Source of the DNA: a virus
Lineage: Duplodnaviria; Caudoviricetes
Reading direction: 5' to 3' (one strand)
IMG/VR virus record: IMGVR_UViG_3300028832_000128
Coordinates: 11,586-75,585 of that record
Length of the DNA: 64,000 bases
Each line of letters opens with the position of its first letter. Within the stretch, counting starts at the first letter, position 1. The position numbers and the translations under genes were made by a program. Positions 692-58,000 of the stretch are shown in pieces. Under the pieces are notes generated by a model. It saw only the letters and a program-made list of their open reading frames with translations. It had not been told where the DNA came from and did no database searches.

Positions 692-850
692 TCAAAATCG
701 CCAAGTAAGTTTTATGAATTTTCCGTCTATAAATTCATTGCTTATCGGCATATATAACCTGCTTGTAAATTCTATTTTCGGTATGTAAGGCGAATTTTTA
801 ACTTTATAATAAGCAATTCCTACCTTACCTATTTTCCATAACTTTTTAAT
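692..850 (-). CDS. Unannotated conserved 52-codon frame directly after the TGA of 851-1231 (possible readthrough extension)
   Basis: IKKLWKIGKVGIAYYKVKNSPYIPKIEFTSRLYMPISNEFIDGKFIKLTWRF; 44/52 identical to 37466-37624. Confidence 0.7.
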   Translation of the reverse strand: MKKLWKIGKVGIAYYKVKNSPYIPKIEFTSRLYMPISNEFIDGKFIKLTWRF

Positions 851-1231
851 TCACTTGTTTTCATCTTTACCGATATACTCTTCAATCATTTCTTTTGCGT
901 TTGCAAACTGAGCGTTATCGGCAATTTCTTTAATTAAAGTTTTTGCTTTTTCGAATGTAGAACTATCGGGCGTCTCTCCCTGTTCTTTCGTATAAGCTCT
1001 ATTAAATTCAGCCAAAACATTAGCTGTAAATTTCAACCAATTTATTTGTGTTTCTTCAGGTTTAGGAATAACCTGTAACGCCAACTTTACGGCTTTAATT
1101 ACATAGTTATCCACTATTTCATCATCTTTTTTTGTTTCCGTCTGTCTTATGATCCAAAGCACAACTCTAAACAAAATGTAAACTAAAATTATCCATCCAC
1201 CGTTTACAAATAAACTTTTTAAAAATTCCAT
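851..1231 (-). CDS. N-terminally membrane-anchored protein (holin- or spanin-like)
   Basis: Hydrophobic GGWIILVYILFRVVLWII followed by a helical soluble region; homolog at 37625-37999. Confidence 0.55.
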   Translation of the reverse strand: MEFLKSLFVNGGWIILVYILFRVVLWIIRQTETKKDDEIVDNYVIKAVKLALQVIPKPEETQINWLKFTANVLAEFNRAYTKEQGETPDSSTFEKAKTLIKEIADNAQFANAKEMIEEYIGKDENK

Positions 1232-1263
1232 ACTTTTTTGTCTCCGTTTTTTTTTATTTTTTA

Positions 1264-6711: not shown

Positions 6712-7101
6712 TTAAAACGGCGGTGTATCGTCATCTTCTATGGCTTTATTATCTTGTTGTTGTTCCGGTTGTGTATCAGAACTCTTTTTTTCAACAACAA
6801 TTCTTATAACTCTACTTGCTGAAATTTTAATGTAAGTTCTTTTTTCTCCGTTATACTCTTCGGTATTTGTTTCAAGTTTTCCGTAAACTATAACCGGTTC
6901 ACCTTTTTTTAATAACATTGGTTTCCAAAGAACACAATTAAAAAAATACGCTCTGTTTACCCATTCGCCTGTATTTTTGTTTTTATAATCATCATTACAA
7001 GCGATTGCAAAAGTTGTCAGCTCTTTTCCTGAATTAGTCATTCTTTGCACACTGTCGGCAGTAACTCTGCCTGAAAGCGTTACACTGTTTAAATCTACCA
7101 C
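6712..7101 (-). CDS. ssb: Single-stranded DNA-binding protein
   Basis: LNSVTLSGRVTAD N-terminus; acidic C-terminal DDDTPPF tail. Confidence 0.92.
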   Translation of the reverse strand: MVDLNSVTLSGRVTADSVQRMTNSGKELTTFAIACNDDYKNKNTGEWVNRAYFFNCVLWKPMLLKKGEPVIVYGKLETNTEEYNGEKRTYIKISASRVIRIVVEKKSSDTQPEQQQDNKAIEDDDTPPF

Positions 7102-7155: not shown

Positions 7156-7248
7156 CCGCCCGGCTTGAAAAAAAATTTTCAAAATCTACAACTAATAAAA
7201 AGCTTTTAATTTCTTAAAAAACTTTGCTTATCATTTTTGATAATTCTT

Positions 7249-7347
7249 CGCCATCTGTTTGATTCGAACAAACATCGCCATCTGTCTAAATCTATTATTT
7301 AATAGACTTAAAGTCGTTGGAATTTTAACCATTTAAACTAAGACAGC
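7249..7347 (-). ncRNA. tRNA-like RNA, 99 nt, with a long helix in place of the anticodon arm
   Basis: GCTGTCT/AGATGGC acceptor, D-arm with GG, GTTTG-TTCGAAT-CAAAC T-arm; compensatory changes vs 44392-44490. Confidence 0.8.
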
Positions 7348-7663
7348 AGTAAATTTATATCATCAATGATAAATCTTTTAAATTTTCCGTGTTTCCGTCA
7401 GCCAAATTCAATTTTAAACAATAATTCTGTCTGTCTAAAATCGTTTTGTAAAAAACTCTCTGTATGGCTGACATTTTTAAAAGGAGAGCGGCTGTCAGGA
7501 CCTACCCCCAACCGTGTCCGGACATCGAATCTTATATTATGTTAAGTTCGACCGCCTTTTTCCTTATTTTCTCGTCGATAAATTTGCTTTGTTTTACTTG
7601 TTTGTTTGTCTGCTTTGGCTTGCCCGGTTGCTTGTTTGTTTGGTTATCTGATCCAAACGCCTA

Positions 7664-11566: not shown

Positions 11567-11764
11567 TTAAAATAATTTCATTTGTTTGTTTTCTCGTTGC
11601 TGCAAATCTTCATAATCTTTTAAAATCTCTTCGAATATTGCAACTTGTCTGTCTGCCTGAGTTTGTGTCATTCTTTTAGCTAAAACCAAATTAGGATATA
11701 CTTTTTTTCTAAATCCCAACTCTCTTTTTATTGCCTGAATTTTATCTCTTGTTGTTATCGACAT
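11567..11764 (-). CDS. Hypothetical protein
   Basis: ORF in tightly packed early operon. Confidence 0.6.
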   Translation of the reverse strand: MSITTRDKIQAIKRELGFRKKVYPNLVLAKRMTQTQADRQVAIFEEILKDYEDLQQRENKQMKLF

Positions 11765-17724: not shown

Positions 17725-20700
17725 TTAAGCGGCTTTTTTTACCGCTTTTTTATACTTGCGTAGCATATTTACAATTTCGTTTTCCATTTGTATTTTTGTT
17801 TTTTCATTATCCTTTTGCTGTTTAAAGGTTAATTTTTTTCTGCTATCCGTAGAATTTTTAACAAACTTATTATACGCCGTTATTTTCTTGCTAATACCTT
17901 TTATATACGGAGAATGTAACCTTAAATAATTCAGCTCTTCAGATGTCAATTTTCTCAAACCTTCTTTATAAGATTTTTCCAAAGCCTCAAACCTTTCTCT
18001 TTCGTCATAAAATTGTTGCATTTCTCGCCCGTAAATAAAATAACTTTCTTGTAGCCACGGTATAACAGATTTTCTAAATGCCTTTTCTTTTTCCGAAACA
18101 TTACCGGTAACAAAATCGGCAAGGTCTGTTTGTGTTTTACCTGACAATTTATCAAAAATAAATTCAGCACCTTTTTCAAGAATACTCCCAACTTGCCCCG
18201 CTACATTATAAATATAATAATCTATTTTAATCGGAGCAATATTAAATTGCTTACCTAAAAACTTTGCAATGTTACTTGTTTTTTCGTCATACTGTAATGC
18301 TTTTTCTCTCTTTTGCAAATACTTCGGAACAATATCTTGCAACGTCGGATAAGTCTTTTTCCCGCCGCCAAGCATTAATCCTATTTTTACTATCTGCGGA
18401 AAATTTCTATACATCAATTGTTCCCATCCTGAATTATCTTTTTCAATTAAGGTTTTAAGTAAAGGAACAACAACGTTAAAATTATCCGGAATAACTCCGC
18501 CTGTTAAAGTTTCTGCGTATTCGCTCAATTTGTAATCATACTCGTTTTTAATTTCGTCATGAATCATTGCAGCTATAACAGCAGGAAAAGAATACAATTG
18601 CTCCCATGGCAACCTTAACAAATCCGTATTATTTAATCCAAACGGCAGATAAGCAAATCTCAAAAACTGAGCAGGATTTAACTGTTCTTTTAGATTTTTT
18701 CTTGTTTCATCCTTAATATTATCCCACCACAACGAAACAACAAACTGAAATATACCATAACCTATCATGGCAAACAATGTTTTTAAGAATTTATTTTTTT
18801 CTTTGTATTCATAAACACCTTTATTGTTTTGTTGTAAATTAACAACTTTACGTCTTTCTAATAAATTATTTCCTTTTGTTGTAAGCAAACTTCTTACACC
18901 TTGTCTTATTACCTGAAGAGAAGCGTTCATATATGGAACCGACCTTAATAAAGATCTGCCGAATCCGCCACCCCATAAACCTCTATCGCCAAACGGGACC
19001 GAAACTTCGTCAGCCATTCTTTTAGCCGTAATAATATCAAAGCCCGCCGCTCTTGCTTTTACATACTCCGTTCTTCTTGTAACAACTTCAGACAGATTCG
19101 GTAAAAACGATAATACTTTTCTTGCTCCGCCGAAAATTTTACTTAAAGTATTTGTTTTAAACGCTTCTGCTAAATCGTCCGGATTAACTTCATCCAAACT
19201 TGTAATAAGAGCTTTGTTATCTCCAAACAACTCGTTATATTCGTCATAATACTGTTTTAATTCAGGATTTTGTCTACATTTCACATAACTCATTAAAGGA
19301 GAAAAAAACGGAACATATCCCATATCAGAATTAACAGCTGCCGTTATCTGATCTCTTGCAAAGTTAGTTGTTGCAAAAACAGGATTTTCCGCTGTAGTCA
19401 TTAATGTAAAAAACTTTGCAGGAGCAACCATCAATTTTTCTATTAAGCTCATTTGATAATTATCAATCAAACTATCCCAAACCTTTTTAACAAACGGATC
19501 CATTTCTAAAGTTTGTTTAATATCTTTACCAGTTTGTCTGTTAGTTCCGACTACAACGAGCTTACTGTTATTTTTTTCGTCTCCTTTTGTATAAGGAACC
19601 TTTTGCATAAGGTCCGGATATAACTCGGCAATTTCGCCCATTCTGTTAGCTATCAACTGTTTATAACTTTTCTTATATGCTTCTTTCATTAGTTGTATCG
19701 AAGAGTATAACGGAGAAAGAATAGGCAACTCGCTACCTTCAATCTTTTTTAAGTTTTTAATATTCCAGTTCGAAGATACTATTTTTGGAATAACGTCGTT
19801 TTTTGCTCCGATTTTTTCAACAAACTCTTTACCATCCCCGGTAAGCTCATTATAAGCTACTCTGTTAAACGGAGCATAACCGTAATTAGCAACAAGCTCG
19901 TTATACATATCTTTATCAATTAACTTTGCTGTTCTTAATACGGTTAAATTACACTTCATTAAAAAGTCATATTTTTTTGCAAGTTCTCTGTTTTGTGTAT
20001 TATCTAAAAACTTATACGCCTCTTTAATTTTTTCTTCATTCTTTCCGCTTTTAGCAAGAATACTTTGCAACTCTTGCAACTTTGCACCGTCTTGTTCAAT
20101 CTTTTTTGTAAGTTTGTCAATTTCTCTTTTTAAATCTTGTTCCAATTGAAACGTTGTTTTTTGATCGTGTATGTTATAAAAATCCTGCTCTTTAATTTTT
20201 TTGCTTACTTCGTCATATCTTTTTTGCAGCTTCTTCAAATTGTTTCCACTAATCACAAGCCCGTTTGCAAGTTTATCTCGCATATCATACCAAGCCACAA
20301 AACGCCTTGCTACTAAATATCCGTTAAACTCACTTTGTGCTTTTTGCACATCTTCAATTAATGTTCTCCAATTAACAGTATCACTCACTTTTACCGGATT
20401 GCCGTGATTATCAATTATATACATCTTACCTTTTTTGTTGGTTAAATTGTTTTCTAATATACCTTTTAAAACGGTTCTATATCCTTTTGCTGTTAAATAC
20501 AAATCCTTGTCCAGCATTTTTAATACGGCTTCACTATCAAATAATTGACTATCGATTCTTACCCCAAGCGGAATTTTTGTTTTATCTTTTACTTTTTGAG
20601 CTTTATCATATATCTCGGTTGTAAGTTGTTCTACAGGATTTAAACTTTCATAATCAACAACAATTTGTCTTGCGTCATTTCTAAAAGATTGTAAAGTATC

Positions 20701-23700
20701 GTTACCCATAGCCCACTTATAAGCGTTAGGATATAAATTTTCTATCATATCCGGATTAATTATCGAATGTTGGATTATTGTAGCAAGTCCTTCAGCCAAT
20801 CTGTTTTTTACACTTTGTTTTGAAATATCTACAGGATATAAGTCTTTACATGCTTTCAATATTTCTGCAGCTGCTTTACCTTCAAAAGTGTTTATATCAG
20901 GCACAAAGGTCGTAAACGCTCTTTTGCCTTTATATGTTGTATTTGCTGTAAATCCTTTATCGTAAAGGTCTGTAATAATTTGTTGTTGGTCGTCAATAGC
21001 GTGCACAAGCTCATGAGCAACCACATCTACATTAAGTAAACTGTTTAAATAAATATTGCCTTTTCTGCTACCGTAATTATAATACACTCCCAAAGTATTT
21101 TTAGGTCTGTATTTGCTTTCGGCAATATTGCTTACCATATACTTTTTAGCCAAATCGTAAGTTCTTTGATACAATTTAAAATCTTTTTCTTTTGGTGTTT
21201 CGTTATTTTTTATTTTTACATCGGTTTTAAGTGCGGAACTATAAGCGGCTCTGCCTTTACCGCCTAAGGATAAATTTACAGAACCGTTTTCTTTTTCAAT
21301 TTCTTTTTTTACTTCGTCTGCTTTGTTTTTAATCGATTTAAGATTTTTGAATTTAGATAAATATTTTGCCTGTTCACTGGTAAATTCTCTTGCGGTATTT
21401 GCAAGGTTTTCTTGTTGAAAGAATTTGTCTATAAGAAGATTACCGAGCTTATTTTCAAGTTCGGTTAAAGTGTCGGCGGTTACTCTTCCCCGTAAAACTT
21501 CGCTCCCTGTGATTTCTCCAACGCTTTCCACTCTTCCATTTCTTTGTCCATCTCCATCGATTCTTGCGGTGTTATCAGCCTGTTCGGCTTGCTGGATAAG
21601 CTGTCGAGCTTGGAGCTCTGTAAGCTCTTCTGAGGATTCTGCGATATTGTTTTTTCTGACATAATCATCCACTGCCCCCTTACTAAACTTATTATACAAT
21701 ATTTTTGCGTTTTTGTCATCCCCTATATTTGCTCCGCCTTGTCCTGCTCCTAAACAACTCGTTGCTACAACGGTTCCGCCGTTTCTTTCAATATATTTTC
21801 TTAGCTCGTTTATATTTGCTCCCATTGTAAATATATCGTCCACTAAAATATATTGTAAATTAGGCACCACTTCGCCGCTAAACATTGCCTTGTCTACTAT
21901 TCTATACATCGCTCCCGAACCGGTATGATAAGTTTTGTTTATTTGTTTAATCTTATCGTATAATTTTAATCCTGTAATTCGTCTAATTTTACCGGCATAA
22001 GCTAAAGGAATTTTGTTTTTACCTGCTTTTTCTATGGACCATAACGGCACAATTACAGCATTAGGATATTTTTCTTTTAATGCTTTTAATTGTTCGATTT
22101 TGCCTTGTATATTTTTTGCTACACTTGCACTTTTGCCGTTAGTATCAAATATTTTGTCCACTAATTCGTAAGCACTTTTTAAATCTCCTGCTTTAGCTTT
22201 TTTATGTAAATCACTATATTTTATTACATTAGGCGTAATCGTTATTTGCACGGAATCAACAGGTTTTGTTATAGGGCAATTTATTTTTTGTAACGTATCA
22301 TTTTGTATTACACTGTCTTCGATGTTTTTTGTTGCCTTTATTTGTTCGTTGTTTGTTTTTCCGTCAACGGCAAGCCCTAAATCTTCATATTTGCCTACAA
22401 TTCTGTCGATACTTTCAAGTTCTTCCCAAATACTTGCGTTGTCGTTGCCTGTTGCTTCTTGCAAAGTATGCTCGGCTTGATCCCACGTATAACCTTTATT
22501 ATTTATAATACCATCTTTTTCGTCATAAAAAAATTCTCTTCTTATTCTCGGACTTAAATGTTCATACTCTCCATAATTTGGATCGCCCTTTTTAGGTCTT
22601 ACAATTCTACCGATACCCATATCTTTTAATCTTTGTTTTTCGCTTTTAATTGTAGGTATAGCTCCATCTTGTTTTAACTCTTCGATAATCATTTGTTCGT
22701 ATTCTTCTTTTGCTCTTGCCTCATCTTCCAATTGTTTGGCATAATTCTCATCCCACTCGGCAGGATTAAACGATGTATCGATATTACTATCGTCATTAAT
22801 AATACTGTCTGTTTGTTCTGTTTCTATGTTTTCAATAGGTTGTTCAATAACTTGCGGATAATTTGTTGACACATCCACCAACACATTATTCGGACTTATA
22901 TAATTTATACCGTTTCCGTAAGTAATAAACCCTAACAATCCGTTCTTTTCTCCTATATATATTCCGTAACTCGAATTATTTATTTTATAAATATTTCCTT
23001 TTACAGGTTCGAACTCTTTATTGTTTATATTGCTCGGCAAATTCTTCGATGTTTCTTCTGTAGGATTTTCAATTACATTTGCTAATCTTTGTCTTATAAT
23101 ACTTGCTTCTGTATTTTTTACTTGCTTTGTTATGTTTTCCAAAGTATCGTTATATTTAATGTTTACATCTGAATTAACCTTAACAATGTTTTTACCTGTT
23201 TCAATTCGCCCCGGTTCAATGTTTACATCTGTATTAATCGGTTTTTCTGCTTGCGGAATTTTTGCCATTTTGGTTTTGATATTTATTGCTACAGCGTCAT
23301 CCGGGCTTATATTTTTAGCTGCTTTATCTATAGCGGTTTTAAACTGTTTTTCCTGCTCCGGACTTACTTTGTAGCCTGCTTTCTTCAATTTGTCAATTGT
23401 GTTATTTGCTGCGTCAGATAACAAAGTTTTTTTAAACTTGTTTACACCAGCACCTATAACAGCGGTATCTCCTACAGCTTCCAATAAGCTCGCTCCGAGT
23501 TTTATGTATTCGTTAGTATCTTCAGGTAACGTTTCAGCCAACATTCTTATTTGCATAGGAGAATATTTTTCGCCTTTAGCTTTTGTTACTATCAAATTTT
23601 TTAACTGTTGCAACCCCGCAAACCCTGCCAAGGCAGTTACAGGCATTGCACCGGTTAAAGCAAGTGTAGGCAATTGTGCCGATAACACTGCAAAATCTTG

Positions 23701-24174
23701 TTTATCTTTTAATTTTTTTAACTCTTCGATGTTTTTAACACTGCCACCGGCAGAGGCGACAGCTATTTTATTTCCTAAAATATCAAAACTATCAGGCTCA
23801 TAAATTGTTTTAGCTTTATCGTCTTCGGCTGTTCTTGCTCTTAAAATAGGCTCTGTATTGTTATATTCTTTTACCATAGAACTGTTTGCGATATTTTTAA
23901 TAACATTAACAGGATTAACCGTATTTTTAATTGTATCTGTAACGGTATCGATATTTTTTGCAGCATTAACCGCAGGGCTTATAACTTTATTTACTCCGTC
24001 ATACAACTTACTGCCTGCAGCTTCTAATATATCGGTAACGGATTTTTTATCTTTTTCTAAACCAAGCCCGGATAAATCCATTTCGCTTTTATCTTCTTTC
24101 TCTAAGTTTAATCCGCTCAAATCTATTTTGTTTTTATCTTCTTTTTCTAAGTTTAATCCGCTCAAATCAAGCAT
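17725..24174 (-). CDS. Giant ejection/polyvalent protein, 2149 aa (PRTase-like domain, HExxH zincin-like motif, LPD-like C-terminus)
   Basis: ILVDDIFTMGA PRPP-loop motif; HELVH...E; last gene of the podovirus ejection cluster. Confidence 0.7.
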   Translation of the reverse strand: MLDLSGLNLEKEDKNKIDLSGLNLEKEDKSEMDLSGLGLEKDKKSVTDILEAAGSKLYDGVNKVISPAVNAAKNIDTVTDTIKNTVNPVNVIKNIANSSMVKEYNNTEPILRARTAEDDKAKTIYEPDSFDILGNKIAVASAGGSVKNIEELKKLKDKQDFAVLSAQLPTLALTGAMPVTALAGFAGLQQLKNLIVTKAKGEKYSPMQIRMLAETLPEDTNEYIKLGASLLEAVGDTAVIGAGVNKFKKTLLSDAANNTIDKLKKAGYKVSPEQEKQFKTAIDKAAKNISPDDAVAINIKTKMAKIPQAEKPINTDVNIEPGRIETGKNIVKVNSDVNIKYNDTLENITKQVKNTEASIIRQRLANVIENPTEETSKNLPSNINNKEFEPVKGNIYKINNSSYGIYIGEKNGLLGFITYGNGINYISPNNVLVDVSTNYPQVIEQPIENIETEQTDSIINDDSNIDTSFNPAEWDENYAKQLEDEARAKEEYEQMIIEELKQDGAIPTIKSEKQRLKDMGIGRIVRPKKGDPNYGEYEHLSPRIRREFFYDEKDGIINNKGYTWDQAEHTLQEATGNDNASIWEELESIDRIVGKYEDLGLAVDGKTNNEQIKATKNIEDSVIQNDTLQKINCPITKPVDSVQITITPNVIKYSDLHKKAKAGDLKSAYELVDKIFDTNGKSASVAKNIQGKIEQLKALKEKYPNAVIVPLWSIEKAGKNKIPLAYAGKIRRITGLKLYDKIKQINKTYHTGSGAMYRIVDKAMFSGEVVPNLQYILVDDIFTMGANINELRKYIERNGGTVVATSCLGAGQGGANIGDDKNAKILYNKFSKGAVDDYVRKNNIAESSEELTELQARQLIQQAEQADNTARIDGDGQRNGRVESVGEITGSEVLRGRVTADTLTELENKLGNLLIDKFFQQENLANTAREFTSEQAKYLSKFKNLKSIKNKADEVKKEIEKENGSVNLSLGGKGRAAYSSALKTDVKIKNNETPKEKDFKLYQRTYDLAKKYMVSNIAESKYRPKNTLGVYYNYGSRKGNIYLNSLLNVDVVAHELVHAIDDQQQIITDLYDKGFTANTTYKGKRAFTTFVPDINTFEGKAAAEILKACKDLYPVDISKQSVKNRLAEGLATIIQHSIINPDMIENLYPNAYKWAMGNDTLQSFRNDARQIVVDYESLNPVEQLTTEIYDKAQKVKDKTKIPLGVRIDSQLFDSEAVLKMLDKDLYLTAKGYRTVLKGILENNLTNKKGKMYIIDNHGNPVKVSDTVNWRTLIEDVQKAQSEFNGYLVARRFVAWYDMRDKLANGLVISGNNLKKLQKRYDEVSKKIKEQDFYNIHDQKTTFQLEQDLKREIDKLTKKIEQDGAKLQELQSILAKSGKNEEKIKEAYKFLDNTQNRELAKKYDFLMKCNLTVLRTAKLIDKDMYNELVANYGYAPFNRVAYNELTGDGKEFVEKIGAKNDVIPKIVSSNWNIKNLKKIEGSELPILSPLYSSIQLMKEAYKKSYKQLIANRMGEIAELYPDLMQKVPYTKGDEKNNSKLVVVGTNRQTGKDIKQTLEMDPFVKKVWDSLIDNYQMSLIEKLMVAPAKFFTLMTTAENPVFATTNFARDQITAAVNSDMGYVPFFSPLMSYVKCRQNPELKQYYDEYNELFGDNKALITSLDEVNPDDLAEAFKTNTLSKIFGGARKVLSFLPNLSEVVTRRTEYVKARAAGFDIITAKRMADEVSVPFGDRGLWGGGFGRSLLRSVPYMNASLQVIRQGVRSLLTTKGNNLLERRKVVNLQQNNKGVYEYKEKNKFLKTLFAMIGYGIFQFVVSLWWDNIKDETRKNLKEQLNPAQFLRFAYLPFGLNNTDLLRLPWEQLYSFPAVIAAMIHDEIKNEYDYKLSEYAETLTGGVIPDNFNVVVPLLKTLIEKDNSGWEQLMYRNFPQIVKIGLMLGGGKKTYPTLQDIVPKYLQKREKALQYDEKTSNIAKFLGKQFNIAPIKIDYYIYNVAGQVGSILEKGAEFIFDKLSGKTQTDLADFVTGNVSEKEKAFRKSVIPWLQESYFIYGREMQQFYDERERFEALEKSYKEGLRKLTSEELNYLRLHSPYIKGISKKITAYNKFVKNSTDSRKKLTFKQQKDNEKTKIQMENEIVNMLRKYKKAVKKAA

Positions 24175-33709: not shown

Positions 33710-34185
33710 TATGCTCCTATTTTCGGAATACTTGTTGAAAATTCTACGGCTTCAATTTGTTCAATTGTTGTGCATTGTTCCAAAGCATTTATTGCGGTTC
33801 TCCATGCGGCTCTTGCCTGTGCAAGTGCTGCATACTGCTCTTGGCTTATTACGCCCTCGCCATACTTAATTGCTTCATAATCGGTCGCCTCAAGCAACTT
33901 TTTTAATCTGTTTATTTTTAATTCTTTGTTTGCAATTACATCGGCTTCAATTGCCTTGTTCCAATAATAATCAAAATGAGCAACAATACTCTCTTTTGTT
34001 ATATTTGCAACTTTCGGATATATCAATCTTACTGCGTCAACTTCATATACGGTTTTATTTTGTCCGTTTTCGGTTTCAACGGTTTTTTCAACCGCATTTT
34101 TAAACAACAAAACTTCCGTAAATCTATCTGTTTGTCTAACATCAACATTATCTTGTGGCACTACATCAACCGTTATTTTGCTCAT
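33709..34185 (-). CDS. Tail-fibre chaperone-like protein downstream of RT
   Basis: LKKLLEATDY.AIK..EG...Y....QARAAWR..IN.LE pattern of fibre-associated proteins. Confidence 0.45.
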   Translation of the reverse strand: MSKITVDVVPQDNVDVRQTDRFTEVLLFKNAVEKTVETENGQNKTVYEVDAVRLIYPKVANITKESIVAHFDYYWNKAIEADVIANKELKINRLKKLLEATDYEAIKYGEGVISQEQYAALAQARAAWRTAINALEQCTTIEQIEAVEFSTSIPKIGA

Positions 34186-35198
34186 TTACACAACCCCCTT
34201 AATTGACTATAATTTATTTTTGAATTTATGTAATTTTCCAACTTAAAACTGCTAAACCATTTTAATCCGCCAAGTCTGCAACTTAATCTTGTAGCCCAAT
34301 ATTTACACGGTTTTTTAACATAATGTTTTAATGTTCTGTATAATCCGTATAAATTTCTTTTTCTAAGTAAAACATAATTATAAAAGAACCTGTAACCGAG
34401 CATATCAATCCCTCTTACTTTGGTTCTGAAAATTTGCCAATTTTGTTTAAGTTTTAATTCTGCTTTTTGTAATATTTCCACTATGGTAGGTAATAATCTG
34501 CGTAATTTTCTTTTATTGCTTGAAAGCACAATAAAATCGTCAACGTATCTCAAATAATAATTAATTCCGTCCGATTGTCTTATTGTTGTATCTAATTTTA
34601 ATAACAAAAGATTCTCAAACCATGCACTTGTGTAATTTCCAAGCGGTAAACTTTTCATACTAAATGCTACTGTTTGTAACAGTTTTAAATATTTTTTATC
34701 TTTTATAAAACGTTTAAAGCACTCTACAACATACTGCGGTTTTATATTGTCGTAACATTTTTTAATATCACATTTAAGGCACCACTTCGTTCCTTTTTTG
34801 TCGGTATTAAGCCATCTTGTAATTGCTTTGTAACCGTAATGAATACCACGCCCCGGAATTGAAGCAATAGCGTATGGATCCAATCTTTTCAACAATCTGT
34901 CATACACCAAATCAATTAACAGATGGTGTATACACTGGTCCGGATAAAATACAGGTTTGTGTAATACTCTACGCTTGCCTGACGGTTGGTCGACTATATT
35001 ACATACGGTATAAGGCGACGGTTTATATGTTTGTGTTAAAACCATCTCTTTTAATTCTTCCGCATAAAAATCAATATTGTTTAAAACTTTTTTAACACTG
35101 TTTCTTTTAGTTTTAAACTTTGCGGCTTTTAAAATTATCCGTTTACAATACTCTGTTGTAATTTTCTCGTTGGTAATCAAATTTCCAACTCTTTTCAT
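34182..35198 (-). CDS. DGR reverse transcriptase
   Basis: YPDQCIHH, IPGRGIH, LKCDIKKCY, LPLGNYTSAWF, YYLRYVDDF, GIDMLGY motifs; adjacent TR/VR pair. Confidence 0.95.
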   Translation of the reverse strand: MKRVGNLITNEKITTEYCKRIILKAAKFKTKRNSVKKVLNNIDFYAEELKEMVLTQTYKPSPYTVCNIVDQPSGKRRVLHKPVFYPDQCIHHLLIDLVYDRLLKRLDPYAIASIPGRGIHYGYKAITRWLNTDKKGTKWCLKCDIKKCYDNIKPQYVVECFKRFIKDKKYLKLLQTVAFSMKSLPLGNYTSAWFENLLLLKLDTTIRQSDGINYYLRYVDDFIVLSSNKRKLRRLLPTIVEILQKAELKLKQNWQIFRTKVRGIDMLGYRFFYNYVLLRKRNLYGLYRTLKHYVKKPCKYWATRLSCRLGGLKWFSSFKLENYINSKINYSQLRGLCK

Positions 35199-35380
35199 TT
35201 CGTTTTATTTCCTGTTTTTTTATCTTTTTTTACACTTCTTATAGTGTTTATATCTTTCAGAGTTTTCTATTCGTTAAAAACGAAATACTAACCCTGCCTT
35301 TTGTTGTCTTATTTTCACCAAGTGGTGCGGATTATACAAACAATAGAAAATATTTTTACTCCAAGTTTTTAAGATATTAA

Positions 35381-35482
35381 CTCAGCGGGCACCGTTATTC
35401 CGCCTCGCATTGTCAAGCCCGTTGTTCAAATTCCAGTAGAAAGCCCCGTAATTCGCCCCGTTGTTGCAATTGCCGCCATTTT
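35381..35482 (-). repeat. DGR template repeat (TR)
   Basis: 11 AAY codons in the VR frame; 102-nt alignment with VR. Confidence 0.95.
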
Positions 35483-35549
35483 GTATAACCCGTAGGGATT
35501 AATCCCTGTTTTACCTCTATTTAAAGAACAAGTTTTTATTTCTTTAGCT

Positions 35550-35588
35550 TTAAGGGAAAAGGCGGCACTGCGTGCCTTTTTCCCTTAA
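35550..35588. other. Hairpin/cruciform downstream of VR (IMH-associated)
   Basis: ttaagggaaaa...ggcac-tgc-gtgcc-tttttcccttaa, about 20 nt after the target stop. Confidence 0.65.
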
Positions 35589-35607
35589 CAACCCTTTTCT
35601 AAAAGGC

Positions 35608-37449
35608 TCACTGTAAAACACAGCGGGCACCGTAATACCGCCTCGCATAGTCAAGCCCGTCGACCAAATGCCAAGAGAAAGCCCCGCAAAGCGCCCCGTA
35701 GCTGCAATAGCCGCCATACCAAGCCGACTTTTGTCCTGCTGACGCTGTTAAATAACTGTAGTCGTCGGTTAAATATTTTACGTTTTGCACTCTTGTAACA
35801 CCGGTATTCGATGGCAAGAAAGCAAATAAAGCAAGGCTGCTTAAAGCTACAAACTTTTTATCCCATCCCTCGCTTGTTCCTATATTTCCTACAGCTGTCC
35901 AATTTTTATTGTTTGCCGTATTTGTGTAAGCGTAATCGCTGTTATTTGGTTTTGGATTAACATATACCGTAGCCACTCCGTCAGCAACAATGTTTTCCAT
36001 ACCGCCCACGGCTTTGTTTTCGTTAGCATACCACTCACATATACCCATAACTTTCATAGGTCTTCTTGTTGTTGTGGTTATTGCTCCGTTTGCCGTATAA
36101 TATCCGTCGTCGCCGAGTATTGCGTCTGCTCCGCCGGAAGCCCTTAATCCTAAATATATTGTTTGGTTTACCGTAGTAGTAATTTCGGTATCGATATTTA
36201 TTTTTTTACAAGCTGTTTCAACGCCGTCTATTGTTTCGGTAACATCTTCTACACTCGAAATTTTATATCCTGTTGACGACGTATTCACATAAACAATATT
36301 ATTTGTAATATCTTGTTCCAAACTTGCAACCCAATTTGTAGCCAAAATTATTATGCTGTTTTCATTACTCTGAGCAACGGCAACTTTTGTTTCTTTCCAT
36401 CCCTCGCTTATACCTTGTCCTACGGAATATTGCCAATTCAAACTTGCATATTTAACTATACCAAGTAATTGTATGGCGGTTATTTCGTTTAGGTTCATAA
36501 GTCTTTGCGTTTTTGCTCTGAGCAACGCCTCAAACTGTTGGTTTGTTTTATAAGTTAAAGGAATACAATCTTTTCTTACGCAACAACCATTGTCGTCTGC
36601 TCCCTCGGGATAACATACCTCATACTTGCCGTAATAGATATATTCTTTTAAATTTCCGTCGTCGTCTTTAAACCCCGGAGCTACTTCATAACCTTGCTCA
36701 GGCGAATCACTAAGCCATATTTCAATACCGTCGTCGGTAATTTGGCTTTTGTGCCAAAATATTCTTTTAGCAACAAATCTATCCCATCCCTCGCTATTTT
36801 TGTATTGTTCAAACTCATAGGTTCCCTCTACATACATTGTTCTTACTTGTGTCTGAGGATTATAATTAACAATACAATCAAATTTGCTGTAAATAGGATG
36901 ATCTTTAAAATCGTCTGTTCCTGCTTCTGTATCGGATGAAGGGCTAAAATCCATACTTGTAGCACCGCCAAGTCTTGTGATAGTTCCATCGTATTTAATC
37001 AATACACCCAACTTTGTAGCACTTTTATATACTTGTTCTATATGATTAAACACAAAAGCCGTCGTTGCTACTTTTCTGCTAATATCGTCCATCGGCTGAG
37101 TTACCGCTTTTAATTCTCCTGAAAAATCTTTGTTACCTGTTATCTCTTCGGTGCCTGTAATATGCACAAGGTTTGTTTCAGGTTGTCCTTGTAATTCTTC
37201 GCCGTTCCAATAATAGTAAGTTCCGTTATACAAGTATGCTATTCTGCTGTCAGGATCAACTCCGCTGTCTTTTGTTGTTGTTGTAAGTGCAGTATATATT
37301 TTATCGTTATAAAACCATTTGCTGCCTCTTACATACGGTGTTGACGGTTCTTCGCCCATTGCAATTAAAGCAACAACTCCTACGTTTCCGCCGTTATTGC
37401 CGCCTACTCTTGTTCTTCCTGTATTTCTTACTCCGTCTTCATAACCCAT
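35608..37449 (-). CDS. DGR target: tail fibre/receptor-binding protein with C-type-lectin-like variable C-terminus (start at MGYEDG)
   Basis: VHITGTEEITGNK and VATTAFV fibre motifs; C-terminal GG....G...GAF.W......A....GAR VR. Confidence 0.88.
   Translation of the reverse strand: MGYEDGVRNTGRTRVGGNNGGNVGVVALIAMGEEPSTPYVRGSKWFYNDKIYTALTTTTKDSGVDPDSRIAYLYNGTYYYWNGEELQGQPETNLVHITGTEEITGNKDFSGELKAVTQPMDDISRKVATTAFVFNHIEQVYKSATKLGVLIKYDGTITRLGGATSMDFSPSSDTEAGTDDFKDHPIYSKFDCIVNYNPQTQVRTMYVEGTYEFEQYKNSEGWDRFVAKRIFWHKSQITDDGIEIWLSDSPEQGYEVAPGFKDDDGNLKEYIYYGKYEVCYPEGADDNGCCVRKDCIPLTYKTNQQFEALLRAKTQRLMNLNEITAIQLLGIVKYASLNWQYSVGQGISEGWKETKVAVAQSNENSIIILATNWVASLEQDITNNIVYVNTSSTGYKISSVEDVTETIDGVETACKKINIDTEITTTVNQTIYLGLRASGGADAILGDDGYYTANGAITTTTRRPMKVMGICEWYANENKAVGGMENIVADGVATVYVNPKPNNSDYAYTNTANNKNWTAVGNIGTSEGWDKKFVALSSLALFAFLPSNTGVTRVQNVKYLTDDYSYLTASAGQKSAWYGGYCSYGALCGAFSWHLVDGLDYARRYYGARCVLQ
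35619..35720 (-). repeat. DGR variable repeat (VR)
   Basis: 19 mismatches to TR, 18 at TR adenines. Confidence 0.95.
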
Positions 37450-37465
37450 TGTAACCACCTCTTTT

Positions 37466-37624
37466 TTAAAATCGCCAAGTAAGTTTTATGAATTTCCCGT
37501 CTATAAACTCGTTACTTATTGGCATATATAACCTGCTTGTAAATTCTATTTTTGGCATATACGGACTGTTTTTGATTTTGTAATAACAAATTCCTGCTTT
37601 ACCTACTTTCCACAACCTAAACAG
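37466..37624 (-). CDS. Conserved 52-codon frame directly after the TGA of 37625-37999
   Basis: LFRLWKVGKAGICYYKIKNSPYMPKIEFTSRLYMPISNEFIDGKFIKLTWRF. Confidence 0.7.
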   Translation of the reverse strand: MFRLWKVGKAGICYYKIKNSPYMPKIEFTSRLYMPISNEFIDGKFIKLTWRF

Positions 37625-37999
37625 TCATTTAAAATCTTCATTGTTTTTGTATTGATCTAACACATCTTTAATATTTTTAAGTTCAATATTATCTGCAATT
37701 TCTTCTATAAGTTTTTTAGCTTTTTCAATTGTTGTAATGTCCGGAGCGTCTCCTTGTTCTTTTGTGTATGCTTCGTTAAATTTTCCAAGTGCATTACCAA
37801 CAAACTTAACCCAATTTACATTTGAGTTTTGCGGTATGATTTTTAACGCAAAACTGACAGCCTGATTAACATATTTATCCAATATAACATCGTCTGTCTT
37901 TGTTTCTGTTTTTCTTACAATCCAAATTCCGATTCTAACCAAACAATAAAATAAAATTACCCATCCGCCATTTATAAAAATCTGTTTTAAAAATTCCAT
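37625..37999 (-). CDS. Membrane-anchored protein (holin- or spanin-like)
   Basis: Homolog of 851-1231. Confidence 0.55.
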   Translation of the reverse strand: MEFLKQIFINGGWVILFYCLVRIGIWIVRKTETKTDDVILDKYVNQAVSFALKIIPQNSNVNWVKFVGNALGKFNEAYTKEQGDAPDITTIEKAKKLIEEIADNIELKNIKDVLDQYKNNEDFK

Positions 38000-41792: not shown

Positions 41793-42197
41793 TTATATAA
41801 TTTCTATATGAGGAATATCTGAAAATTTTTCGTCTTTTGTTTCTCCGTTTCTGTTCCAATCTCCGCCCCATCTGAAATTTGACGTTATAAGTCCTAAGCT
41901 TTTAAATCTTTCAGCTACTCCTAACCAATATCCAGCTAAATATGCAAACCTTTCTCTATTCTTCCAATCAATCGGATAAGGAGCAATATCAATCGCCTGT
42001 GATGGAACAAGTAAATGTTTAGAGTTCATTGTTTTACTTTTACCTTCTTTTACATACTGTGCCTGTTGTTCTTTTGTTCTTATAGTAGAAGATAAAATAG
42101 TAAAATCTATTTTTTCTATAACAACCATAGCAACAACTTGTATATCTCTATGGCATTGTCTAAGCAACGAAAAACTTTGTTCTGAAAACTTTGGCAT
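41793..42197 (-). CDS. Endolysin, M15 family (start at MPKFS)
   Basis: Near-identical to 5085-5489. Confidence 0.9.
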   Translation of the reverse strand: MPKFSEQSFSLLRQCHRDIQVVAMVVIEKIDFTILSSTIRTKEQQAQYVKEGKSKTMNSKHLLVPSQAIDIAPYPIDWKNRERFAYLAGYWLGVAERFKSLGLITSNFRWGGDWNRNGETKDEKFSDIPHIEII

Positions 42198-42201
42198 AAT
42201 A

Positions 42202-42477
42202 TTATTCCTTTGTTCCCACAAAATTCATAACGGCATTTACCGCCGTTTTTATCTGTTCAAAACTAAAAATTTTTTCTCTCATTAAAGCCGTTTTTATTTT
42301 ACTTTTAATTTGTTTTGCGGTTTCTCCGCAATCTTTATATTTACATCCTTTACAATCGTTTTTACTGTCAAGCCACACTTTATCATGATTGCAAAAATAA
42401 TCTCCCTCAAAAGTGTCAAATTGTCTAAATATACAGTCTCCTTGTTTTACTTCTACAACAGCATATTTTTTAACCAT
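42202..42477 (-). CDS. Cys-rich hypothetical protein
   Basis: Homolog of 5500-5778. Confidence 0.6.
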   Translation of the reverse strand: MVKKYAVVEVKQGDCIFRQFDTFEGDYFCNHDKVWLDSKNDCKGCKYKDCGETAKQIKSKIKTALMREKIFSFEQIKTAVNAVMNFVGTKE

Positions 42478-43796: not shown

Positions 43797-43840
43797 TTTG
43801 TTTCTGTCTCCTTTTTTTAAAAAACTTTTTCTATGTTTTT

Positions 43841-43916
43841 CGCTTTCTGTAGGATTCGAACCTACACTCCCAAATACACCGGTTCTTTGGTGTTCTTCCG
43901 TCTAAACTAAGAAAGC
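43841..43916 (-). ncRNA. tRNA-like RNA, 76 nt, with an 11-nt loop in place of the anticodon loop
   Basis: GCTTTCT TA GTTT AGACGGAA GAAC A CCAAA-GAACCGGTGTA-TTTGG GAGT GTAGG TTCGAAT CCTAC AGAAAGC G; no encoded CCA. Confidence 0.75.
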
Positions 43917-43917
43917 A

Positions 43918-44291: not shown

Positions 44292-44391
44292 CCGCCCGGC
44301 TTTAAAAAAAATTTTTTCAAAATCTACCACTTAATAAAAGGCTTTTAATTTCTTAAAAACTCGAAATTATCAAAACTGATAAAATTAAAAA

Positions 44392-44490
44392 CGCCGTTGG
44401 TTTGATTCGAACAAACATCGTCAATTGTCTAAATCTATCGGTGGACAGATTTAAAGTCATTGAAATTTTAACCGCTTAAACTACAACAGC
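44392..44490 (-). ncRNA. tRNA-like RNA, 99 nt, extended anticodon-arm helix
   Basis: GCTGTTG/CAACGGC acceptor; same architecture and length as 7249-7347. Confidence 0.8.
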
Positions 44491-44806
44491 ATTAATTTAT
44501 ACCAACAAAGATAAATCTCTTAAAATTTCAGCCTTTCCGTTAGCCCAAAACAAAATTAAATTGTTTTTATTACCTTATTATCTCGCTTTTTATAAAAAAC
44601 TCTCTGTAAGGCTGACATTTTATAAGCCGGAGCCGCTGTCGGGACCTACCGGCAACCGTGTCCGGTGCCGAACTTGATATTATGTTAAGTTCAGGCGTCA
44701 AATTCTTTGTTTTATCGTCGGAAACTTTGCTTTATTTTTGCTTGTTTGTGTGTCTGATATGGCTTGTGCGATTGTTTGTTTTGTCTGATCCTGATACAGA
44801 CATCTA

Positions 44807-55088: not shown

Positions 55089-58000
55089 TTAAGCTGCTTT
55101 TTTAACCGCTCTTTTCCACTTGCGCAACAAATCTATAATCTGATTTTCCATATTGATTTTAGTTTGTTCATTTTCTTTTTGTTGTTTAAACGTTAAATTT
55201 TTTCTGTTATCGGTAGCGTTTTTAACAAACTTGTTATAATCTTTTATTCTTTTACTGATAGTTCTTATATGCGGAGCATTAGCCGATAAATATTTTAACT
55301 CTTCGGAATTTAATTTTCTTAATCCTTCTTTATGAGATTTTTCCAACGCTTCGAACTTTTCTTTTTCATCATAAAACTGTTGCATTTCTCTACCGTAAAT
55401 AAAATAACTTTCCTGTAACCATGGCATTACGGTCTTTCTAAATGCTTTTTCTTTTTCCGTAACATTTCCGGTAATAAAATCAGTAAGCCCTGTTTCTGTT
55501 TTTCCGGACAATTTATCAATAATAAATTCAGCACCTTTTTCAAACATACTGCCAACTTGCCCGGCTACATTGTAAAGATAATAATCTAATTTTATAGGAG
55601 CAATATTAAACTGTTTGCCTAAAAACTTCGCAAGGTCGCTTGTTTTTTCATCATACTGCATAGCTTTTTCTCGTTTCTGCAAATACTTCGGAACAATATC
55701 TTGTAACGTCGGATAGGTCTTTTTTCCACCGCCAAGCATTAACCCTATTTTTACTATTTGCGGAAAATCTCTATACATCAACTGTTCCCATCCTGAATTA
55801 TCTTTTTCAGCTAAAGTTTTAATCAAAGGAACAATAACATTAAAGTTATCCGGAATAACTCCACCGGTTAAAACTTCCGCATATTCGCTTAATTTATAAT
55901 CGTAATCATTTTTAAGTTCATCATGTATCATCGCACCTATTACAGCAGGAAAAGAATACAACTGTTCCCATGGTAACCTTAATAAATCCGTATCATTAAA
56001 TCCCCATGGCAAATAAGCAAATCTTATAAACTGAGCAGGATTTAACTGTTCTTTTAGATTCTTTCTTGTTTTATCGTCTATATAATCCCACCACAACGAA
56101 ACAGCTGTCTGAATTACACCTAATCCCATCATAGCAAACAAGGTTTTTAAAAATTTATTTTTTTCTTTATATTCATAAACACCGTTACTGTTTTGTTGCA
56201 AATTGACAATCTTTGGATTTTCTAATAAATTATTTCCTTTTGTTGTCAATAAACTTCTTATACCTTGTCTTACTACCTGAAGCCCTGCATTCATGTAAGG
56301 AACCGACCTTAACAACGATCTTCCGAAACCACCGCCCCACATTCCTCTATCACCAAACGGAACAGAAACTTCGTCAGCCATTCTTTTAGCTGTAATAATA
56401 TCAAATCCAGCTCCTCTTGCTTTTACATACTCGGTTCTTCTTGTTACAACTTCAGATAAGTTCGGTAAAAACGATAATATTTTTTTACCATATCCAAATA
56501 TTTTATATAACGCATTAGTTTTAAATGCTTGTGCTAAATCGTCCGGATTAACTTCATCCAAATTTGAAAGAAAAGTATTACTCTCACCAAATAACTCATT
56601 GTATTCATCAAAATATTGTCTTAATTCAGGATTTTGTCTGCATTTAACATAAGTCATTATAGGAGTAAAAAACGGAACATATCCCATATCTGAATTAACG
56701 CTTGCTGTTATCTGATCCCTCGCAAAGTTTGTTATTGCAAAAATAGGATTTTCTGCCGTTGTCATCAATGTAAAAAACTTTGCCGGAGCAACCATCATTT
56801 TTTCTACAACGCTCATTTTGTAGTTATCAATCAAACTATCCCAAACCTTTTTAACAAATGGATCCATTTCTAAAGTCTGTTTTATTTCTTTGCCTGTAGC
56901 TCTGTCTGTTCCAACTATAACAAGTTTACTGTTATTTTTTTCATCTCCTGTTTTATACGGAACCTTTTGCATAAGCTCCGGATATAACTCGGCAATCTCG
57001 CCCATTCTATTAGCTACAATTTGTTTATAACTTTTCTTATACGCTTCTTTCATTAATTGTATTGAAGAGTATAATGGAGATAAAATCGGCAATTGGCTAC
57101 CTTCGATTTTTTTCAAGTTTTTAATATTCCAATTCGAAGATACTATTTTCGGTATAACATCGTTTTTTGCTCCAAACTGTTCAACAAACTCTTTACCATC
57201 TCCGGTAAGCTCGTTATAAGCTACTCTGTTAAACGGAGCATATCCGTAATTAGCAACAAGCTCATTATACATTTCTTTATCAATCAGCTTTGCTGTTCTT
57301 AATACGGTTAAATTACATCTCATTAAAAAATCATATTTTTTGGCAAGCTCTCTGTTTTGTGCGTTATCCAAAAACTTATAAGCGTCTTTTATATTCTGCT
57401 CATTTTTGCCGTTCTTTTCAAGAATACTTTGCAAATTCTGCAACTTCTCGCCTTCTTGCTTAATCTGTCTTGTAAGTTTATCAATTTCAATCCTTAAACT
57501 TCTTTCCAAATCGTAAGCCGCTTTCTGATCGTGTATATTATAAAAATCATCTTTCTTGATTTTCTCGCTTACTTCGTTATATTTTTGCTGCAACTTTTTT
57601 AAATTATTTCCTAAAACTTCAATTCCGTTTGCTATTTTATCACGGTTTTCATACCATGTAACAAATCTTCTTGCTACCAAATATCCGTTAAATTCACTTT
57701 GTGCCTTTTGCACATCTTCAATTAAAGTTCTCCAATTTACATTGTCGCTTACTTTTACCGGATTGCCACGACTATCAATTATATACATCTTACCGTCTTT
57801 ATTAGTTAAATTATTTTCTAATATACCTTTTAAAACGGTTCTATATCCTTTTGCTGTTAAATACAAGTCTTTATCCAACATTTTTAATACAGCTTCACTA
57901 TCAAACAACTGACTATCGATTCTTACACCAAGCGGAATTTTTGTTTTTGCTTGCACTTTTTGAGCTTTATCGTAAATTTCAGTTGTCAGTTTTTCTACAG

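Follow-up and report, generated by a model that had tools for sequence, protein, structure and literature searches.

Programmed stop-codon readthrough is textbook biology for RNA viruses and for phage Q-beta (Allolevivirus), in which a minority of ribosomes read the leaky, context-dependent UGA of the coat gene and so give a fraction of this abundant protein the C-terminal domain of A1, without an elaborate RNA stimulator. Two isoforms in a set ratio are also made from one lysis gene, as S105/S107 in phage lambda and S68/S71 in phage 21, and the charged tail of lambda S regulates lysis timing. Such holin/antiholin isoforms arise from dual starts (PMC3091744), and the phage tail assembly chaperone pair G/GT (E/E+E' in P2) arises from a conserved -1 frameshift that yields one protein with and without a C-terminal extension (PMC3091744). 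A literature search found no described stop-codon readthrough in the lysis gene of a double-stranded DNA (dsDNA) phage, and the word 'holin' is absent from the available part of the text of a large recoding review. Here we analyse a 64,000-nt window (positions 11,586 to 75,585) of the 75.6-kb IMG/VR virus record IMGVR_UViG_3300028832_000128, in which a holin-like membrane-protein gene is followed, directly after its TGA and in frame, by a conserved extension of 52 codons. Comparative data lead us to favour, as somewhat likely, programmed recoding of this stop, by which the holin-like protein would be made in a short form and, as a minor product, a long one.

The proposed arrangement resembles Q-beta coat/A1 in that a phage gene would use minority UGA readthrough to place a C-terminal extension on a fraction of its protein. 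Unlike the single-stranded RNA phage Q-beta, where the product is a capsid component, the present case concerns a temperate dsDNA phage and the putative readthrough of a membrane/lysis protein. It differs from the lambda S and phage 21 pairs in the end of the protein concerned: their isoforms diverge at the N-terminus through dual starts, whereas here they would diverge at the C-terminus through stop recoding. The lambda and phage 21 holins also have two or three transmembrane segments (TMs) as against one here, and share no sequence similarity with it. G/GT, for its part, depends on a slippery-heptamer frameshift and serves tail morphogenesis, involving neither stop readthrough nor a membrane protein.

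The window holds two tandem related prophage units, A and B, of ~37 kb each, with the minus strand used for most transcription. Each unit carries one copy of the module, made up of the following parts.

1241-1245, minus strand: GGAGA Shine-Dalgarno (SD) sequence of the unit A membrane gene
854-1231, minus strand: unit A holin-like membrane open reading frame (ORF), 126 aa
851-853, minus strand: unit A TGA with A as next base (TGA-A), the proposed readthrough site
695-850, minus strand: unit A 52-codon in-frame extension, net charge +8
704-778, minus strand: part of the unit A extension coding for a beta-hairpin (codons 25-49)
692-694, minus strand: TGA ending the unit A extension and acting as a stop
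37628-37999, minus strand: unit B holin-like membrane ORF, 124 aa, 54% identical to that of unit A
37625-37627, minus strand: unit B TGA with C as next base (TGA-C)
37469-37624, minus strand: unit B 52-codon extension, with TTG at codon 4, net charge +7
37478-37552, minus strand: part of the unit B extension coding for a beta-hairpin (codons 25-49)
37466-37468, minus strand: TAA ending the unit B extension

The original prediction, made from the DNA alone, had placed exactly 52 in-frame sense codons after the TGA in both units, and this holds at the exact coordinates. The two extensions are identical at 44 of 52 residues, as had been stated, their codon differences amounting to 13 synonymous and 8 nonsynonymous; the claim of six synonymous and no non-synonymous changes over the last 29 codons was reproduced codon by codon. 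Selection at the protein level, also proposed there, is borne out by the Nei-Gojobori comparison of A with B (dS 0.79, dN 0.117, omega 0.15). Within the family, conservation is highest over hairpin codons 25-49 (LYMPIS ... KFIKLTW), and both alternative frames of the extension are full of stops. Past the terminal TGA of unit A the frame closes at a TAA 7 codons on, a stretch without conservation in unit B. Open in-frame runs after the stops of the record have a median of 7 codons, and every longer run is an ordinary downstream gene that has its ATG and SD. Being in frame is in itself no evidence, because three other gene pairs of the record are in frame by chance. The conserved 52-codon in-frame extension is real and lies far beyond chance.

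A decaying remnant, or an unexpressed frame held open by chance or by selection on DNA or RNA, might be expected to look like the tail in some respects: gene callers mostly miss it, Pfam and PHROGs hold no family for it (nor for the 92-aa protein encoded upstream), and Foldseek of its model against PDB returned nothing at E <= 0.001. Against such an origin stand the omega between A and B, the retention of the tail frame in more than 30 clusters at identities down to ~57%, an AlphaFold2 (AF2) model of the unit B tail with pLDDT 87.7, and the want of any conserved RNA structure; we regard it as very unlikely.

Membrane-protein homologues came only from metagenomes and a sheep-rumen Elusimicrobia metagenome-assembled genome (MAG). 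Loci were gathered through the contigs of these homologues and then through searches using the tail itself, giving at the DNA level 22 distinct in-frame junctions from rumen phages and the Elusimicrobia MAG, with 17 further protein clusters. The tail lies directly behind a single-TM membrane gene at the junction loci. This upstream gene is of two types, type 1 (124-159 aa, with a helical C-terminal domain, the type of the window) and type 2 (66-100 aa), which have nothing in common but the TM and the T-x-T-x-KDD motif behind it (hhalign probability 60%). The region matched none of 50,697 phage records in a blastn search. Scanning viral contigs with the membrane-protein alignment likewise gave nothing, whereas the scan with the tail alignment did yield loci; a tail-profile search of representative proteins gave 6 matches only, none of them fused to a membrane protein.

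Once these homologues were aligned, the in-frame TGA and its phase, on which the readthrough proposal depended, proved to be kept at 22/22 distinct in-frame junctions; two of the findings named in advance as refuting it do occur, but among distant relatives only: L016 with its SD/ATG, and L017 out of frame. As a control, the same sequences have 19 conserved Lys/Glu columns: in 18 the wobble base varies between A and G, and in none is it G throughout. Since synonymous divergence is high (dS 0.6-0.8 within clades, saturated between them), since wobble sites vary in this way, since TAA dominates among the 62 ORFs of at least 100 aa in the record (TAA 66%, TGA 24%, 15/62), and since the tail-less homologue L008 ends in TAA, the invariance of the TGA is, on this comparative footing, not mere inertia. 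L008 is the most distant membrane homologue (45% identical), and its TAA is followed by a gene with SD and ATG. 

The base after the TGA is A or C at every in-frame junction. Poole et al. reportedly found in 1995 that UGA is weakest in E. coli when A or C comes next. The fourth base is important for stop context (PMC5373646). Fifteen ORFs of the record end in TGA, and the unit B junction is the only one of them with TGAC.

Neither the 1.84 billion representatives nor a search for longer proteins yielded a fusion through a sense codon; the stop is therefore always kept, so that a short form would be needed, and two products are implied. Seventeen long database proteins do span the junction; all have W at that position, and W often recurs where the tail has its own TGA. 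For three of them the DNA of near-identical loci has TGA at the junction, while TGG is conceivable for the others. These long W-junction proteins are gene calls made under code 4, as seen at the three loci. Public calls of the module (P0014, P0015, P0023-P0039; L016) often read TGA as W on short contigs, with artificial fusions and run-ons past the tail TGA, and the source of one such call of the module named it 'RatA toxin'. The TGA=W calls are an annotation artefact triggered by the in-frame TGA, and a practical pitfall in rumen viromes.

Taken at face value, the 17 fusions from public pipelines, together with the calling of some short contigs with TGA=W, would make TGA a sense codon (through code 4/25, a suppressor tRNA or selenocysteine) and the gene simply one ORF of 177-179 aa. 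Much speaks against this. TGA ends 15/62 ORFs of the record, the unit A tail and many homologue tails. The related Elusimicrobia MAG has prfB (513 bits, above cut-off) and no SelB above cut-off, and no conserved hairpin resembling a selenocysteine insertion sequence (SECIS) is present. As to suppressors, the only tRNA found is tRNA-Pro(CGG), and the tRNA-like elements of the window have no normal anticodon loop. A sense TGA is thus very improbable.

The main rival account of the tail is a separate basic peptide of 49-52 aa, with no fusion protein: ribosomes that have terminated at the upstream stop would restart beside it, and the peptide would act in trans, perhaps in the cytoplasm as an antiholin-like partner of the membrane protein; we consider this possible but rather unlikely. 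The restart would fall, with the same modest likelihood, either at a TTG, ATG or GTG in codon 4 or at a near-cognate codon 1 (AUA/AUU/AUC/CUG) abutting the stop. Small lysis-cassette proteins acting on the cytoplasmic part of a holin or on membranes are known, namely T4 RIII, a cytoplasmic antiholin, and the phiKT gp28 'disruptin'. Like the tail they are basic and ~50-80 aa long; unlike it they are separate genes with their own starts, without similarity in sequence or fold, and the analogy is functional only.

The start signals bear on this choice directly. No SD core precedes codon 1 or codon 4 in either unit, in line with the original remark that a clear ribosome-binding site is missing, and, as also noted there, the two units share no start near the front of the tail: A reads ATT..TTA and B reads CTG..TTG, the first shared ATG being codon 34. 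The unit A tail has no ATG, GTG or TTG at all before that codon, its codon 4 being TTA. No TGA-junction locus has an SD ahead of the tail, compared with an SD core (GGAG/GAGG/AGGA/GGGG) ahead of 46/62 ORFs of at least 100 aa in the record (74%), although SD absence is normal in tightly coupled genes. Seven distinct sequences (A, L013, L014, L034, L036, L038 and L041) have no ATG, GTG or TTG within the first 12 codons, the L014 contig ending after tail codon 10. A conserved canonical start near the upstream stop, the mark of a coupled separate gene, is not found: at codon 4 the start has been lost independently in three close pairs (TTG to TTA or CTA in members A, L013 and L014), the L029/L033/L034/L041 clades have no canonical start there, and the codon is elsewhere TTA, CTA, GTT, CTT, GTA or ATA, the last four in whole clades. 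At codon 1, GTG and TTG, the best non-ATG starts, are never seen, though the residues they encode would be acceptable. Bacteria initiate very inefficiently at AUA or CUG, which counts against a separate peptide; nor is reinitiation known to require TGA, and yet the TGA does not vary even where divergence is saturated.

The residues next to the stop point the same way. The three codons before codon 4 encode I/L, then mostly L, then K/R, and these residues are kept through synonymous codons: the Leu of codon 2 is encoded as TTG, TTA, CTA or CTG and the Arg of codon 3 as AGG, CGG or CGT. In the AF2 model these stop-adjacent residues lie inside the N-terminal helix (pLDDT 84-88). Conservation through synonymous change and the modelled helix together mean that translation appears to cover the codons abutting the stop, ahead of any codon-4 start.

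Several observations weigh against recoding, most of them in favour of a separate start. Codon 4 is TTG, ATG or GTG in 10/18 distinct sequences, compared with ~22% TTG among Leu codons, and ATG occurs there in four lineages; this enrichment suggests that internal initiation has been selected in some lineages. Codon 1 (ATA, ATT, ATC or CTG) differs from ATG by one base in every case, as stop-adjacent reinitiation would have it, and it is Met, presumably ATG, in two clusters known as protein only. The B clade retains CTG at codon 1 although CTT is ten times commoner. L016 is a free-standing copy of the tail with AAGGGGG and ATG, and L017 is a hairpin-only copy begun at an internal ATG and not in frame with the gene before it; homology of that gene with the membrane-protein family is not established (hhalign probability 3%). 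RNAalifold over TGA -12 to +90 in 15 sequences found no conserved pairs and no SECIS-like or stimulator hairpin. L016 can also be read the other way: this separate copy carries normal start signals, in contrast to the junction loci, and to that extent counts for recoding. Reinitiation leaves the invariant TGA, the absence of GTG/TTG at codon 1 and the repeated loss of the codon-4 start unaccounted for; readthrough, as first proposed, therefore stands as the leading explanation on comparative data, with the codon-4 starts and the free-standing copies left as counter-evidence, and readthrough and separate initiation could both operate in some lineages.

A sister clade has dispensed with the TGA altogether. 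In L037 and L039/L040 the G of the TGA is gone (TGAATA to TAATA or TAATT), a TAA in the corresponding place closes the membrane ORF, and the tail lies in the -1 frame. A run of nine A residues (A9) is located 3 nt upstream of the TAA, from which the -1 frame is open into the tail; in L039/L040 the tail frame has no start codon. With A10 in place of A9 the sequence becomes colinear with the TGA types and has Leu at the former stop position. The A9 stretch is real, because contigs from 4 runs in 4 studies show no indels in it, and A-runs in the TGA-type sequences seen do not exceed 6. In bacteria, transcription slips efficiently on runs of nine A or T (PMC5009743). The same source describes dnaX tau/gamma as made by a -1 frameshift in E. 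coli and by transcriptional slippage on a 9-nt run in Thermus (PMC5009743). The likeness lies in one product pair reached by different recoding routes in different lineages, with an A/T run of 9 as slippage site. Unlike the present module, dnaX is a cellular replication gene in which recoding gives the shorter product; here the product would be longer and would come from readthrough in one clade and A9 slippage in another.

The A9 lineages also supply points against recoding. Because the two form one clade, weakly supported and with long branches, the A9 event probably happened a single time and was then maintained. The chance of all six Lys codons staying AAA is ~0.14, which makes AAA retention supportive but not decisive. 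TAATA and TAATT moreover keep the stop overlapping a putative near-cognate start, an arrangement compatible with reinitiation, in which a one-base deletion would leave the coupling intact. Both styles of module occur on one contig: IMGVR_UViG_3300028832_000177 (54.8 kb) holds two copies, like the record of the window, L033 being a type-1 gene with in-frame TGA and L040 a type-2 gene with TAA and A9.

The membrane protein of unit A has a short N-terminal tail, one TM (~residues 7-28, with an invariant Arg within) and a helical domain of ~95 aa. A single hydrophobic segment (KD19 1.85-2.11) followed by a charged C-terminal domain is the build of a small holin. No Pfam or PHROG match ties the type-1 membrane protein to a described holin family; type 2 matches phrog_9685, whose function is unassigned, and an atlas neighbour, 'putative phage holin', is at 0.84 a lead only. 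Many homologues of both types, with strong SDs, have a signal-peptide-like N-terminus (MKK followed by hydrophobic residues and VFA|D/E) in front of the TM. Because this N-terminus looks cleavable and precedes the conserved TM, the region after the TM is placed in the cytoplasm, and the predicted topology is N-out/C-in with a cytoplasmic tail.

The AF2 model of the unit B tail contains a helix (residues 2-19) and a beta-hairpin (25-34/39-49). A structure prediction for the fusion had been called for, and its outcome was divided: the tail alone is modelled well, as given above, whereas the whole fusion is poor (pLDDT 61, pTM 0.36), a result that tells against the recoded protein, and the fusion model was left out of docking claims. 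A four-copy complex prediction of the tail scored 0.06, which is no answer and no evidence either way.

The original prediction had gone further and seen in the readthrough product possibly a one-gene, spanin-like or envelope-bridging protein that joins an inner-membrane anchor to a beta-signal-bearing tail. In such a protein the helical domain would be periplasmic and the C-terminal strand would reach or insert into the outer membrane. Some features invite that idea. The tail closes with a strand of alternating hydrophobic and polar residues, the last one aromatic in most members; its nearest neighbours in a protein language model are C-terminal fragments of outer-membrane barrels (PagL, DUF1302, SlipAM, Phage_OMP; 0.85-0.89, leads only), the hosts are diderm, and the module sits in lysis cassettes. 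The signal-peptide-like homologues, however, put the post-TM region in the cytoplasm, neither the tail nor the free-standing L016 has a lipobox or export signal, and L008 has a separate u-spanin-like gene by which spanin function is supplied otherwise.

L008:802-1455: tail-less membrane-protein homologue, then a u-spanin-like ORF with a lipoprotein-type signal, a coiled coil and a C-terminal TM, then a Peptidase_M15-like endolysin

As for the beta-signal, the strand pattern is there, but the terminal Phe is Leu in L006 and L010 and the barrel neighbours all fall below 0.9. Neither the envelope-bridging claim nor the beta-signal claim is supported by these data, and a spanin-like product is very unlikely.

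The surroundings of the module in its relatives are those of lysis genes. It lies next to or near a Peptidase_M15_3 / phrog_894 endolysin in L006, L008, L010, L034 and L041, adjoins DUF5675 proteins in L005, L029, L033 and L037, and in L017 is followed downstream by an NLPC_P60 gene. Small coiled-coil proteins (XhlA-like, holin-like or Rz-like) precede it in relatives. L008, with its u-spanin-like gene and Peptidase_M15-like endolysin, gives the clearest lysis-cassette context of the family. In L006 a 388-nt gap without called genes after the tail may contain a tRNA gene (L006:3535-3766). In the window the module sits between the capsid gene and the target gene of a diversity-generating retroelement (DGR), with the terminase genes beyond the DGR; the only endolysin-like ORF of the window (41793-42221, ~4 kb off) has a weak Peptidase_M15_4 match below cut-off.

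Each of the two units has these parts.

Integrase and early region
Scaffold-like acidic protein and major capsid protein (phrog_1357)
92/93-aa protein, and the membrane gene with its 52-codon frame
DGR: target protein with a 101-nt variable repeat (VR), template repeat (TR) and reverse transcriptase
Terminase, portal and tail genes, and a 2,150-aa protein

The last of these is one 2,149/2,153-aa protein per unit (17725-24174; 55089-61550), which combines an LPD38 'large polyvalent protein' domain with a phrog_22413 segment and is unusually large for a 37-kb phage. The DGR and tRNA features around the module are the following.

34182-37458: complete unit B DGR, directly downstream of the tail
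Unit B DGR target: 616-aa tail protein, phrog_5302
35617-35717 and 35379-35479: unit B VR and TR respectively, 101 nt, 84% identical
34182-35198: unit B DGR reverse transcriptase, RVT_1
1-645: unit A DGR target, running past the window start
43840-43917, minus strand: tRNA-Pro(CGG), unit B only, the sole tRNA called by ARAGORN
7248-7348 and 44391-44491, minus strand: tRNA-like element common to both units

No Avd-like ORF was seen between the parts of the unit B DGR. In unit A alone, a 17-nt palindrome, AAGCTCAT-G-ATGAGCTT, lies at 670-686 between the tail stop and the SD of the DGR target; in unit B, which has no palindrome, the tail TAA runs straight into the SD of the DGR target. The place of tRNA-Pro(CGG) is taken in unit A by an ORF at 6712-7101. 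With introns allowed, ARAGORN reports the tRNA-like elements as 'tRNA-Ser(aga)' with a 26-nt intron, a long hairpin replacing the anticodon loop; they were considered as UGA suppressors and rejected, the normal anticodon loop being absent.

Under the recoding that we favour, the membrane gene and the 52-codon frame would be one recoded gene of the phage lysis module. Most ribosomes would halt at the UGA, giving the short form, a holin-like protein of 14 kDa with a single TM, and a minority would decode the weak UGA-A or UGA-C, presumably by near-cognate tRNA-Trp, and go on. The resulting long isoform of ~20 kDa would carry a cytoplasmic, C-terminal basic module (+7/+8) composed of an amphipathic helix and the beta-hairpin. 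In the A9 clade the long product would come from polymerase slippage (A10 mRNA) or from a -1 ribosomal shift. The ratio of long to short form would tune the timing of membrane hole formation, or of holin assembly or triggering, a role for which the charged cytoplasmic tail of lambda S and the isoform pairs of holin and antiholin serve as analogies. More tentatively, this holin-like family may set its lysis clock by stop recoding, with the tethered cationic tail as a built-in antiholin or trigger on the cytoplasmic side of the membrane; it is just as doubtful, though conceivable, that UGA leakiness, or A9 slippage in the sister clade, fixes the tailed fraction. Such a clock would couple lysis timing to host physiology, because UGA termination depends on RF2 and the translation state.

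Should the tail prove to be a separate peptide, SD-less initiation at a stop-adjacent AUA or CUG would itself be unusual for bacteria. Recoding, if true, would make the junction a clean system for testing in bacteria how the UGA-A and UGA-C contexts act, and would explain a conserved coding segment that gene callers miss or rescue by the wrong genetic code 4. It would also show readthrough and homopolymer slippage as interchangeable natural routes to one product, and be a new way of making holin isoforms, at the C-terminus by recoding and not at the N-terminus by dual starts.

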